Notes under the pieces: generated by a model | Database searches by the model: none | The model's input: the letters and a program-made list of their open reading frames with translations, nothing else | What the model was told of the DNA's origin: nothing | NCBI GenBank assembly: GCA_951406725.2 | Contig: OX597831.1 | Location: 27,962,001 to 28,026,000 of the forward strand | Source: Octopus vulgaris | Taxonomy: Eukaryota | DNA length: 64,000 nucleotides | Reading direction: 5' to 3' | Program-made: the position numbers and the translations under genes | Part shown: positions 48,866 through 58,016 of the stretch, one piece after another | Numbering within the stretch: position 1 is the stretch's first letter | Layout: each line of letters starts with the position of its first letter

Positions 48866-49365
48866 AGAGGGCATTATTACACATACATGCCACACGCTAA
48901 GAGGGACATTAGTCATTTCTACCAAAAAATTTTACTAATCATACCCAATGCAATTTTTCAAAGCAAGACATTTAAAAAATGAATTTAGTCTTGTATCACC
49001 TGTGATTTCGTACTTACCGCAGTTGCGACCGTACTCATCAGCAAGACTGATTCTGAACATATAAATATATAAATAAACATATAAATAAACATATAAATAA
49101 ACGACCCCTACCGTCAAAGCCGAACAGCTATCTGTTCCTCTCCAACGACGCACAAGGGGAAGTTTACATATAATACATCCGGTAAATGACAGGCTTCTTC
49201 GAATTGCATTTCGGATAGGAAAAGTTTTTTCGGAATAAAATTATTTAACAATTAAGGATAACTTCTTAATAAGGAATCTTAACAAGAAATTATCAGGTAG
49301 ATAGCGTGAAAAACCTCATAAGAGAAAAATTTCGAAAATAATTCTTTCTTATTGAACATATTAAT
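48866..49365 (-). mobile_element. Non-coding HHR-bearing repeat (pLTR/retrozyme-like) between (TA)n tracts
   Basis: ~500 bp flanked by TA runs; contains HHR 48987-49048; homologous segments at 57645-58016. Confidence 0.7.
48987..49048 (-). ncRNA. Type I hammerhead ribozyme, complete
   Basis: Minus strand: AGUCUUG-CUGAUGA-GUAC(GGUCGCAACUGCGGUAA)GUAC-GAAA-UCAC(AG)GUGA-UA^CAAGACU. 7-bp stem I, stem II, stem III, AUA cleavage triplet (cut between 48994 and 48993). Confidence 0.9.
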
Positions 49366-52300
49366 ATATATATATATATATATATATATATATATATATA
49401 TATATATATATATTTGTGTGTGTGTGTGTGTGTGTGTGTGTGTGTGTGTGTGTGTGTGTGTGTGTGTATATATATATATATATATATATATATATATATA
49501 TTCTTTTATTCTTTTACTTTAAAGGGTTTTTAGCCGAAGAAATCGACCCCAGGATTTATTCTTTGTAAGCCTAGCACTTATTCTATCGGTTTCTTTTGCC
49601 GAACCGCTAAGATACTGGGGTACATAAACACACGAGTATCGGTTGTCAAGCGATGGAAGGAGGGACAAACACTGGCAATACATACATACGTAAATACATA
49701 CATACATATATACATACATGCATACATACGTACATACATACATGCATACATACATACGTATGTGTATATATATATATAGTGAGAATATATATATATATAT
49801 ATATATATATATATATATATATATATATATATATATATATAATACACAGAGGAATGGTCATAAGTCGCTTTACCCATTTCTAATAATAATTTAAAAAATG
49901 AATAAAGCGACTTATAGCCATCCCTGTATGTATATATATATATATGTGTGTGTGTGTGTGTGTGTGTGTGTGTGTGTGTGTGTGTGTGTGTGTGTGTGTG
50001 TGTGTGTGTGTGCGTATACACACACACACGACGGGATTCTTTCAGTTTCTGTTTATCCACTCATAAATCTGTTGTTGGTCTGAGACTATAGCAGAAGGCA
50101 CTTTCCCAAGGTGCCAATTACTGGGACTTAACCATCGGTTGTCAAGCGATGTTGGAGAGACAAACACAGACACACAAACATATACACACACATGCATATA
50201 TATATATATATGTGTGTGTGTGTGTGTGTGTGTGTGTGTGTACATATATATACGACGGGCTTCTTTCAGTTTTCGTCTACCAAATCCACTCACAAGACTT
50301 TGGTCGGCCCGAGGCCATAGTGGAAGACACTTGCCCAAGGTGCCACGCAGTGGGACTGAACCTGAGACCATGTAGTTGTTAAGCAAGCTACTTATCACAC
50401 ATCCACGTTCACACCCGAGCATGATTTTATGAGTAAGATTGGTAATTGTCCATTCACACAAGTCTCCGCTCGCCCCGTTTATGCAAGGGAAATACTACCA
50501 ACTGGATAAGATACAGCTTAGCTTCTCTGTAATTACAAGTATTGCTATAACAACACAAAGAACTTGAAGAGACACTGCAAGCTATTTTGCCTGGCTCTCT
50601 AACGATGGAATTAGACCAGAGTGTAGTGATTCGGAACAACTGTGGCAAGACGCTCAATCCATCGCGCTAACAACTTTAATAACCTCGCCGCCATTCAAGA
50701 GTAGGAATTACAACCGTGTTTCGTGGTCTGCTCCTACAACAGATCCTTTATAGGATCCAGTTAGCTCAAGGCATCATCAGGAGGAACCACGTCCGGTTTC
50801 GGCCCCTACTCCTCTACCGTTTTGACGTGGCGGGGCCCCCGCTTTCGGAGGTGTCTTCAGCTCTGGTGTTGGGTGCATGTCTTCTTTCTTCTGTTCCCTG
50901 GCCTCTTCGATGTATCGTCAGCGAGTGTCATTTTGACCTTGAATTGTTAGAATCAGTAAAACTCTATTTAATTAAAGTGCCTTTATGTTATGAACTCAAA
51001 TCTCGGCGATATCAACCCTGTTTGTCATCCTTCAGGTAATAATAAAATTAAATAACAGTCTTGATGGTCTGTTTTTTTTCTTGTTTTGTTTTTTTTTTTT
51101 TGTTTTTTTGTTTTTTTACTTTCTACGGTAGGCACAAGACCTGAAATTTTTTGTAGGGTGGGGAAACAAAGTCAACCTCGGTTGGGATTAACTCAGAACA
51201 TAAAGACCCGGCTGAAATGATGCTATGCATTTTTTTTAACACGCTAACGCTTCTACCAGCTCGTCGTCTTCGTTCTATCCCAATATCCCTCAAACATCTT
51301 TCAGATGTGACAAGAATTATAAAAGGGGAGATAAGTCACATCTACCTAAGGTAGATAACTCACCTTGATAGAATCGAAAGCGGAAGAGATTTGATTTCTG
51401 ACGAAGGTTGGCCAAAGTTTATATTAAACCACGAATGCAATTTACTGTGAGTAGCGTTAATGTTTTTAATTAACTCTCATTAAAGCATAATCTGTCACAG
51501 AGAAAAGAGCTCAAGTTTCTATTTCTTCTCTAAAATATTACTGAAATACAAATGCAGCCCTGCGTATTACTTACAATTGTGTGAATCAGTAATGTTGTTG
51601 ATGTTGTTGTTATTTTGCCCGAGGTCAACCCTGTACACCTGCGATCCAAGATATTTCAACCGTGACCTTCTTGTCTTTTATTTAGACGTAGTATATCTAG
51701 GACTACATTATTTAATGCGTTACCGTTATTGCTGATGTTTAGTTCCGGGTTTAGCCCTAGTCCAAAAGTTCTATGACTAAAAGTGCTCCAACCGTGACTC
51801 TCTTGTTTTTTATTCGGACATAGTATAACTAAAGCTACATTGTTTAATGTGTCGTTTCATATTTAAGACATTAATATATGATTTAACGGAGATAAGTCTG
51901 GAATTTCTCGTAGTTTGAATAACGTGGCTCGTCTTTAAGTAAGAATTAAAAAATAAACATAACTCAATTTAAAGAAGAGTTTTTGATACAACAAATGCCA
52001 TGAGAGAAGGGAAATGTAACTGGAGTGACGGATTTGCCTTTTTAATTCTTAATAAAGAATCGATGGTATTGTTTTTATTCAAGCGGTGTTGTTGGTAAGT
52101 TTGTTACCTGTGCACACAGAGTTCTCGAATCTCACCGGTGTCATATGTGAAATTATTCCTTAAAATATATTGGTTCCTACATCAGGATCTGCTTTTGAAA
52201 ACGAATGAAGGGATCAAGAGAAAGGGAAAGATTAAACTCACAGCTTGTTGCCTGGTTGTTGTTTAGTCCGACGTACAAATATAATCAAAATCACTCCACT

Positions 52301-52499
52301 TGTGACCATCCCGTCTGTTTCTGGTTCCTATCTAAAATGATCCCATGAACACACTACCCAACATGTCCTTATTTTTCTTAGACAGTAGAGCATGACAGTC
52401 GACTGCCATTTCTAGTAGAGAGAACGGCTACATAGAGGCTACTTTGTTTTTTATTGACTCATGCTGGTATCAGTGTTAGTGTAGCATAGATTAAACTCT

Positions 52500-56723: not shown

Positions 56724-57644
56724 CAACAGCTTCTCTTATTTCTTCGTGTCTTGTTATTTCCTTCTACTAATATTGTTGTATTTTAACATGCTGTTCTTTC
56801 TTTTCTTATTTTTTGTCTTCATCTCTCTTTGTATTCTGTCTTCTGTCAGGAAGACAAACTGTAAAATATGCTCCTTGACCCCTCCCTGTCACCAGATACC
56901 CCCAAATCATTAAGAAAATCTAAAAGCTCAAAAGCTTTAGGAATCATATAAAATCACAACCATACAGCTAACTTTAGACTTGTACACTGTTCAGACCTTT
57001 ATGAGCTACTTCAACTCCTTTGGTATCAAAACACTTTGCAGTATTATGAGTTACCATTTGTCAAATTTTATATCCAACCAATGACTCCACTCAGAAACTG
57101 ACATGTGTCCTTTTACTTGTATGAATTAGGCTGCACATGTTCAGATCATTTGGCCATGTTGATCACTTGTCTCAGTTAAACTCTGTTTACTGTGTTCTCT
57201 TCATTGAGGATCCAACTGGGTTGACATCACATGTTGATCGACCACATGCCACATGGTCACGGCAGAGGTATCTCATGGAGATGGGGACTGACTGGGACTG
57301 CACTCGACAGGACACTCAGAAGGACCCAAGAATATACTGACAAATGGTGAATGCAGCAATGCACTGCAGCAGTACTTGCCCCCACACCTGACTTGCTCAT
57401 ACAACTAAGCACCCTCCCCAGGACTTAGGGGAATCTTTCTATTCACTAACACAGACAGCTGGTCATACCAAGACTGTTAGATTCTGAACCTGGACCAAAT
57501 TATCATCTTCATCACCATCATCGTTTTAGTGTTCACTTTTCCTTGCTTGCATGTGTCAGACTGAATTTGTTATATATATAAACATATATATATATATATT
57601 TATAATCTTATATATATATATACATATATATATATATATATATG

Positions 57645-58016
57645 TATAGAGGGCATTATTACACATAAATGCCTCACACTAAGAGGGACTAAGTCATTAC
57701 TACCAAAATTATACTAATCATACCCAAATGCACTTTTTCAAAGCAAGACATTTAAAAAAATGAATTTTTTTAAATGTCTTGCTTTGAAAAACTGCATTTG
57801 GGTATGATTAGTATAATTTTGGTAGTAATGACTTAGTCCCTCTTAGTGTGAGGCATTTATGTGTAATAATGCCCTTTATACAATATAGATATAATTAATT
57901 TGTTCAAAAGAAAAAAATTATTTTCGAATTCTTTTCTTTTTATGAGGTTTTCACGCTAACTACCCGATAATTTCTTGTTAAGATTCCTTATTAAGAGGTT
58001 ATCCTTAATTGTTAAA
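57645..58016 (+). mobile_element. Fold-back, circularly permuted copy of the 48866-49365 repeat
   Basis: ~115-bp inverted arms 57645-57760 and 57765-57880 (loop TGAA) match 48866-48985. They are followed by 57890-58016, which matches the reverse complement of ~49244-49365. Confidence 0.75.

Follow-up and report, generated by a model that had tools for sequence, protein, structure and literature searches.

A head-to-head insertion of a short non-coding hammerhead repeat in Octopus vulgaris is likely of Penelope-like type

Introduction

Insertions of Penelope-like elements (PLEs) are described as typically combining a partial tandem, an adjacent inverted 5′-truncated copy, a tail of 30–40 bp on one end only and (TA)n targets (PMC8557442), and head-to-head palindromic junctions between pseudo-long terminal repeats (pLTRs), with a tail on one inverted pLTR, have been ascribed to self-priming on an antisense template (PMC3846280). 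Here we examine a 64,000-nt stretch of Octopus vulgaris DNA (GCA_951406725.2, contig OX597831.1, positions 27,962,001–28,026,000; hereafter the window, whose coordinates are used throughout), which carries two copies of an abundant non-coding repeat with a predicted hammerhead ribozyme. We conclude that the second copy is a head-to-head insertion of this short repeat, probably made by a PLE enzyme from linear RNA of a head-to-tail master.

A biochemical precedent is an anole PLE protein, that of Poseidon from Anolis carolinensis (PAc). At AT-rich DNA this protein nicks both strands and extends them; dimer formation is predicted, and copying begins at two internal positions at least ~85 nt 3′ of the hammerhead cut (PMC11167929). 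Hammerheads lie in pLTRs, circles have been hypothesised to account for tandems, and the minimal metazoan PLE hammerhead is described as having a helix II of 7–8 bp, a helix I of 4–5 bp, an extra base after position 9 and a helix III that is reduced or absent (PMC4209133). Non-coding hammerhead repeats are known as non-LTR retrozymes (PMC7229834) and have been argued to be PLE derivatives (bioRxiv 10.64898/2026.07.22.740005); non-autonomous PLE insertions are reported to be often short (PMC9977147). Penelope-like families are annotated in O. vulgaris in a study whose main text, as far as it bears on these families, makes no mention of ribozymes (PMC13282606). Among open-licence papers we found none that treats this octopus repeat family or inverted junctions defined by the cut; the family may be listed in Repbase or in the supplements of PMC8557442 and PMC11167929.

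Results

Layout of the two copies

Both copies lie within TA microsatellites. On the minus strand, copy 1 (48866–49365) reads segment A, hammerhead, segment B, and the 4 letters at 48856–48859 are those found in the 49364-to-48860 joint of sequencing runs X1 and X2, so that copy 1 is one ~509-nt unit running from linker to linker. Its features are as follows.

48856–49364, minus strand: copy 1, one repeat unit of ~509 nt, A–hammerhead–B, with both ends in the TA-rich linker (BLAST, read joints)
49049–49365, minus strand: segment A, upstream of the hammerhead, hairpin-rich (BLAST, folding)
48987–49048, minus strand: type I hammerhead motif, with a 7-bp helix I, CUGAUGA at 49041–49035, helix II of 4+4 bp, GAAA at 49009–49006, helix III and AUA
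48993–48994, minus strand: predicted cleavage site, after A17 at 48994
48866–48993, minus strand: segment B, from 3′ of the predicted cut to the TA-rich linker; putative reverse-transcription start site 1, a role proposed by analogy to PMC11167929
48964–48993, minus strand: native palindrome, imperfect, at the 5′ terminus that the predicted cut would leave, with 6-bp arms and an A-run/TGAA/T-run core

The repeat is low in GC (32%), the 500-nt copy 1 has stop codons in all six frames, and no open reading frame (ORF) of 150 aa overlaps either copy, so the single reverse transcriptase (RT) plus GIY-YIG ORF of an autonomous endonuclease-bearing PLE is absent from both.

Copy 2 (57643–58016) is ordered differently: an inverted B, a TGAA turn, B, the TA-rich linker and ~128 nt of A.

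57571–57642, no strand: left (TA)n target flank of copy 2
57643–57760, minus strand: left arm of copy 2, an inverted B with no extension, beginning in the TA flank at the linker
57761–57764, plus strand: TGAA turn, equal to 48980–48983 of copy 1
57765–57882, plus strand: right arm of copy 2, B read in hammerhead sense from 14 nt 3′ of the predicted cut
57883–57895, plus strand: TA-rich B–A linker, identical in 11 of 13 letters to one linker in run X2
57889–58016, plus strand: the first ~128 nt of A, a one-sided tail-like extension whose end is a putative reverse-transcription start site 2
58019–58340, no strand: right (TA)n target flank of copy 2

Apart from itself, copy 1 has three BLAST matches within the window, all in copy 2 (E 1e-38 to 1e-41): 57645–57767 matches 48863–48986 on the same strand (90%), 57766–57880 matches 48979–48863 reversed (90%) and 57889–58016 matches 49369–49244 reversed (89%). 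The arms of copy 2 are 119 nt long and 98% complementary, with 2 mismatches. These matches bear out the first-pass annotation, made from the sequence alone, which had read A–hammerhead–B in copy 1 and B then A in copy 2, the latter preceded by an inverted B with a 4-nt loop. Within B the two arms share 13 changes relative to copy 1; of the 2 sites at which they differ, one is a common family variant (48953 A>G).

The turn falls 7–14 nt 3′ of the predicted AUA cut, the right arm starting 14 nt from it and the left arm reaching 48983–48986, at 7–10 nt, the foot of helix I. For a 500-nt unit, we estimate at ~3% the chance that a single junction lies no more than 14 nt to one side of the cut. The same annotation had described copy 2 as a sister copy starting at the cleavage site, ~13 nt downstream of the predicted cut; the proximity of the turn to the cut stands. 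No copy in the window starts exactly at the cut, and copy 2, about half a unit long, ends inside A and not at a second cut.

Taken together, this is a known arrangement: it is the insertion structure described for PLEs (PMC8557442, PMC3846280). Like endonuclease-bearing PLEs (Penelope/Poseidon, Neptune), as far as these two sources describe them, the octopus repeat shows a partial tandem, an inverted 5′-truncated copy adjacent in head-to-head orientation (in the assembly only), a palindromic junction, an extension of one arm, (TA)n surroundings and a sense type I hammerhead. (TA)n adjoins 4 of 4 ends of the two copies, in keeping with AT-rich targets, and masks any target duplication; TA runs of at least 10 nt number 107 in the window. 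Unlike those elements, the octopus repeat carries no RT or GIY-YIG ORF, its one-sided extension measures ~135 nt instead of 30–40, and its inverted copy has no hammerhead, with the turn 7–14 nt 3′ of the cut.

Three other TA-flanked inverted repeats, with arms 97–100% complementary, lie at 21054–21581, 40919–41131 and 2063–2275 (arms of 190, 85 and 93 nt; spacers of 67, 43 and 27 nt, respectively). These near-perfect repeats are probably other PLE-type insertions, and they show that inverted layouts are common in the window.

The hammerhead motif

A motif scan returned 3 hammerhead matches in the window, against no match in any of 20 shuffles. Helix II of the copy 1 motif comprises 4 bp plus a 4-bp extension; helix III comprises 4–5 bp with self-complementary arms, through which dimer pairing was computed at -11.2 kcal/mol. 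Among the 40 of 76 variant rows listed, 6 fall in the motif: 3 lie in helices I/II and keep their pairing as G-U, 2 lie in loops and 1 disrupts a terminal U-G pair, while the core has none. The type I hammerhead expected of the terminal repeat of a non-autonomous PLE derivative is present as a motif of putative activity. It shares with the minimal metazoan PLE hammerheads, as described in PMC4209133, the type I form, the G10.1-C11.1 pair and a self-complementary, dimer-capable helix III; it departs from them in its helix I of 7 bp, core helix II of 4 bp, lack of an extra base after position 9 and helix III of 4–5 bp, and so is not of the minimal type.

Several observations concern the motif itself. 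A splice-donor-like G/GUAAGU at 49012–49018 (minus strand) overlaps the 3′ strand of helix II, and an AUG within the core opens a 17-codon frame. Introns near hammerheads are kept in PLEs. The two other scan matches are type I hammerhead-like motifs of unrelated sequence with a long loop 2, at 20659–20740 (plus strand) and 41635–41716 (minus strand). The former sits in a TA-flanked island, and an Rfam search of 19732–20943 gave no hammerhead. A further TA-flanked island at 19732–20319 (minus strand) holds, by eye and outside the scan hits, a hammerhead-like variant whose core ends CUGAUGC; it is opposite in strand to the 20664 motif, and a TA run separates the two islands, which are oriented towards each other.

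Family copies in sequencing runs

Copy 1 alone was aligned to short contigs of 4 of 24 sequencing runs, X1, X2 and X4 (DNA) and X11 (presumed RNA), and the family proved very abundant, with 13,643, 2,035, 2,074 and 83 contigs aligned, respectively. Joints of an A start to a B end make up 10 of the 11 joint rows (X1, 2; X2, 4; X4, 4; X11, 0) and occur in 3 of 3 DNA runs, which argues that the B-then-A order is a head-to-tail trait of the family and not chance stacking. With the B–linker–A order of copy 2, these joints constitute the head-to-tail partial tandem of pLTR type; the junction that the first-pass annotation had proposed to look for in other copies is therefore found, and the tandem, pLTR-type retrotransposition intermediate that it suggested is the right frame. 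In X11, one of the 83 contigs crosses the hammerhead. None of the 24 runs is recorded as RNA, which carries no information about expression. Variant letters of the copy 2 A extension recur as loose ends at 49312 in X1, X2 and X4. Strand-change joints are a different matter: none is listed in the 4 runs, where short contigs can hide them and the listings leave out most loose ends (355) and contig pieces (17,843), and no listed contig piece crosses 48979–48986 into the reverse strand, so that the fold-back of copy 2 is seen in the assembly and is without confirmation outside it.

Position-level depth falls between 48973 and 48991 by 22×, 36× and 10× in X1, X2 and X4 and by 3× in X11, is low through the hammerhead and mid-A, and rises from ~49240, near the 3′ end of copy 2. 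This profile fits a family in which stubs of B plus the initial ~128 nt of A predominate; alternatively, a different hammerhead may be present in most copies. Summed unitig or contig depth does not give copy number, and reading the depth as copy number was rejected on this ground.

Loose ends at 48876 (X2, X4) and 48892 (X4) point to an apparent subfamily with a ~25-nt tandem duplication at the B end. A metagenome pattern scan gave 81 matches, the best of which aligned to copy 1 over 33–40 nt, and none was a relative.

Discussion

A proposed two-strand route to the insertion

The repeat is likely a non-autonomous, retrozyme-like PLE derivative, as its insertion structure in copy 2 has the arrangement expected of one. 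We propose that a PLE protein would nick both strands of a (TA)n run and prime two complementary DNAs (cDNAs) at two internal start sites, the left-arm cDNA starting at the TA-rich linker that ends B and the right-arm cDNA ~128 nt into A. Both would run to the hammerhead foot and be joined through the A-run/TGAA/T-run palindrome at 48964–48993. The stop near the turn would have about an even chance of being the 5′ end of a ribozyme-cut RNA, the other candidate being a stall or switch at helix I of uncut RNA. Copy 1 would be a unit-length read-through of an uncut tandem or a re-ligated RNA. A possible variant, which needs an extra event, is that synthesis ran off exactly at the cut and the palindrome was perfected afterwards.

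The polarity of the loop constrains this scheme. As the plus strand reads TGAA and not TTCA, the strand that turned was the plus strand, primed at the left (TA)n in the linker ending B, and loop polarity agrees with such a left-primed strand. Since this strand has no A of its own, it takes a second antisense strand carrying the ~128 nt of A, unless a left extension was lost later or the loop flipped. With both strands nicked and two start sites, the PAc protein explains the one-sided tail, and we take two cDNAs as the simplest reading. PAc offers further likenesses: its copies have 3′ ends ~85–130 nt 3′ of the cut, to be compared with the 127 nt at which B ends, its target is AT-rich, and a pair of start sites would account for where the two arms end. 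It differs in being autonomous, in start sites only 30–40 nt apart and in having no RNA-seq ends at the cut (PMC11167929).

Several points weigh against the proposed route. The only ties of the repeat to a PLE protein are its layout and its motif; the ~135-nt extension is longer than PLE tails; and strand-change joints are lacking among those listed. Rfam Hammerhead_1 scores the motif at 17.4 bits against a gathering threshold of 34 (E 0.27), and the active fold, at -14.5 kcal/mol, lies 2 kcal/mol above the minimum of -16.6. The hammerhead of the anole element is dispensable for insertion in vitro (PMC11167929). Depth at 48932, inside B, is 14–24× below that at 48973 where copy 1 has private changes, and variant subfamilies occur at 48978–48993, some reading on into the hammerhead; because of this similar dip and these subfamilies, the depth step at the cut is weak evidence. 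Finally, among the 24 loose ends listed, at least 2 are inversions far from the cut: a self-inversion, read by eye, near 48940 in X1, ~55 nt from the cut, and a piece in X2 that runs to 49343 and turns to the minus strand at 49108 (a 16-nt match).

Alternative origins

Self-priming by one strand is the strongest competitor to the two-strand route, although we consider it unlikely. Here a single antisense strand would have turned at TGAA and copied itself through B, the linker and the ~128 nt of A, the left extension being lost later when the (TA)n flank slipped against the linker; self-priming on an antisense template has been proposed for PLE junctions (PMC3846280). The arms are as one template would give them, sharing 13 changes relative to copy 1 and differing at 2 sites; DNA ending at 48986 can fold into a small hairpin (-2.0 kcal/mol, and -3.8 for an end at the cut); and the loop polarity agrees if the strand was primed on the left. 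This route nevertheless requires an extra deletion, BLAST finds no remnant of A in the left flank, and one-sided tails are the PLE norm, accounted for by two start sites. Priming from the right-hand A end, the simple fold-back of one cDNA envisaged in the first-pass annotation, predicts TTCA on the plus strand and is contradicted by the TGAA seen there, unless the loop flipped later.

We give still less credence to a retrozyme circle, in which the main template would be a circular RNA of ~509 nt that is cleaved and re-ligated at the hammerhead, and B-then-A copies would be permuted pieces of it. Animal non-LTR retrozymes, as described in PMC7229834 and bioRxiv 10.64898/2026.07.22.740005, resemble the octopus repeat in being non-coding and low in GC, with helices I and II of canonical type, self-paired RNA, head-to-tail joins and a proposed dependence on PLEs, and copy 1 is exactly of unit length, from linker to linker. 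It also folds far better than shuffles as a circle (z -4.2, with 0 of 60 shuffles as good, while 12 control strands gave z -1.6 to +1.2), so that the highly self-paired RNA of retrozymes is matched. The linear and antisense folds score as well, however (z -4.0 and -5.1), showing strong self-pairing with no strand specificity. Furthermore, the octopus unit of ~509 nt exceeds the reported 150–450, and it is dispersed in (TA)n; where retrozyme arrays have at least 2 consecutive hammerhead units of 150–450 bp, the window holds one hammerhead of the family and no array, and the contigs are too short to show arrays. The very uneven depth across the unit also weighs against a circle. The circular RNA template suggested for copy 2 from the sequence alone does not fit either, as a circle lacks a 5′ end at which copying could halt near the cut and would yield read-through copies such as copy 1, not a copy of about half a unit; DNA itself does not distinguish a circle from a tandem.

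That the fold-back is an assembly or library chimera appears very improbable. In its favour are the lack of listed strand-change joints, including any piece running from 48979–48986 into the reverse strand, and the 320-nt TA run that adjoins copy 2. Those joints were sought with copy 1 only, on short contigs that hide them, and a chimera leaves unexplained that the arms differ at 2 sites, one of them the common family variant, that the turn coincides with a native palindrome and that three other TA-flanked inverted repeats occur in the window. Chance stacking of independent insertions within a single TA tract, suggested by TA-rich junctions throughout and the frequency of TA runs, is scarcely credible, as other copies also have the linker, the arms resemble each other at 98% yet copy 1 at 90%, and the B–A joints in the contigs largely refute such stacking.

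A possible link to ribozyme cleavage

As the layout of copy 2 is textbook for PLEs, its potential interest lies in the position of the turn. On the two-strand reading we advance, tentatively and with more doubt than confidence, that most family copies may be stubs of B plus A, their 5′ boundaries clustering a few bases past the cut on its 3′ side, that cut RNA may be the dominant template in vivo and that the palindrome at the cut end may serve as a dedicated joint for the two cDNAs. If true, this would provide evidence, at the level of the genome, of a role for the hammerhead, one described as unclear in PMC8557442 and found dispensable in vitro in PMC11167929. An abundant short family with a near-canonical hammerhead lets thousands of 5′ ends be plotted against one predicted cut: a sharp cluster would tie ribozyme cleavage to the inverted-repeat structure, and scatter would close the idea.

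Other features of the window

The window is microsatellite-rich animal DNA. Rfam returned 338 weak matches over its whole length, and among the 150 listed almost all are microsatellite matches to miRNA models. An intronless 422-codon ORF at 55455–56723 (plus strand), presumably mTERF-like by its look, has as its best named relative an uncharacterised Octopus bimaculoides protein (88%), followed by one of Argonauta hians (56%); a Pfam search of 3 window ORFs including this one returned 0 families. Copy 2 begins ~920 bp beyond its stop codon and, if within the 3′ untranslated region, would form a 119-bp double-stranded hairpin. Two stretches on the minus strand, 21769–23181 and 59654–60720, are in our assumption decayed LINE-like reverse-transcriptase fragments, two pieces of which have no Pfam match. 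An array of 11–13-nt units occupies 36675–39500, with one frame open for up to 293 codons. Common repeats resembling short interspersed nuclear elements form imperfect palindromes at 58434–58645, 60587–60665 and 30513–30764.

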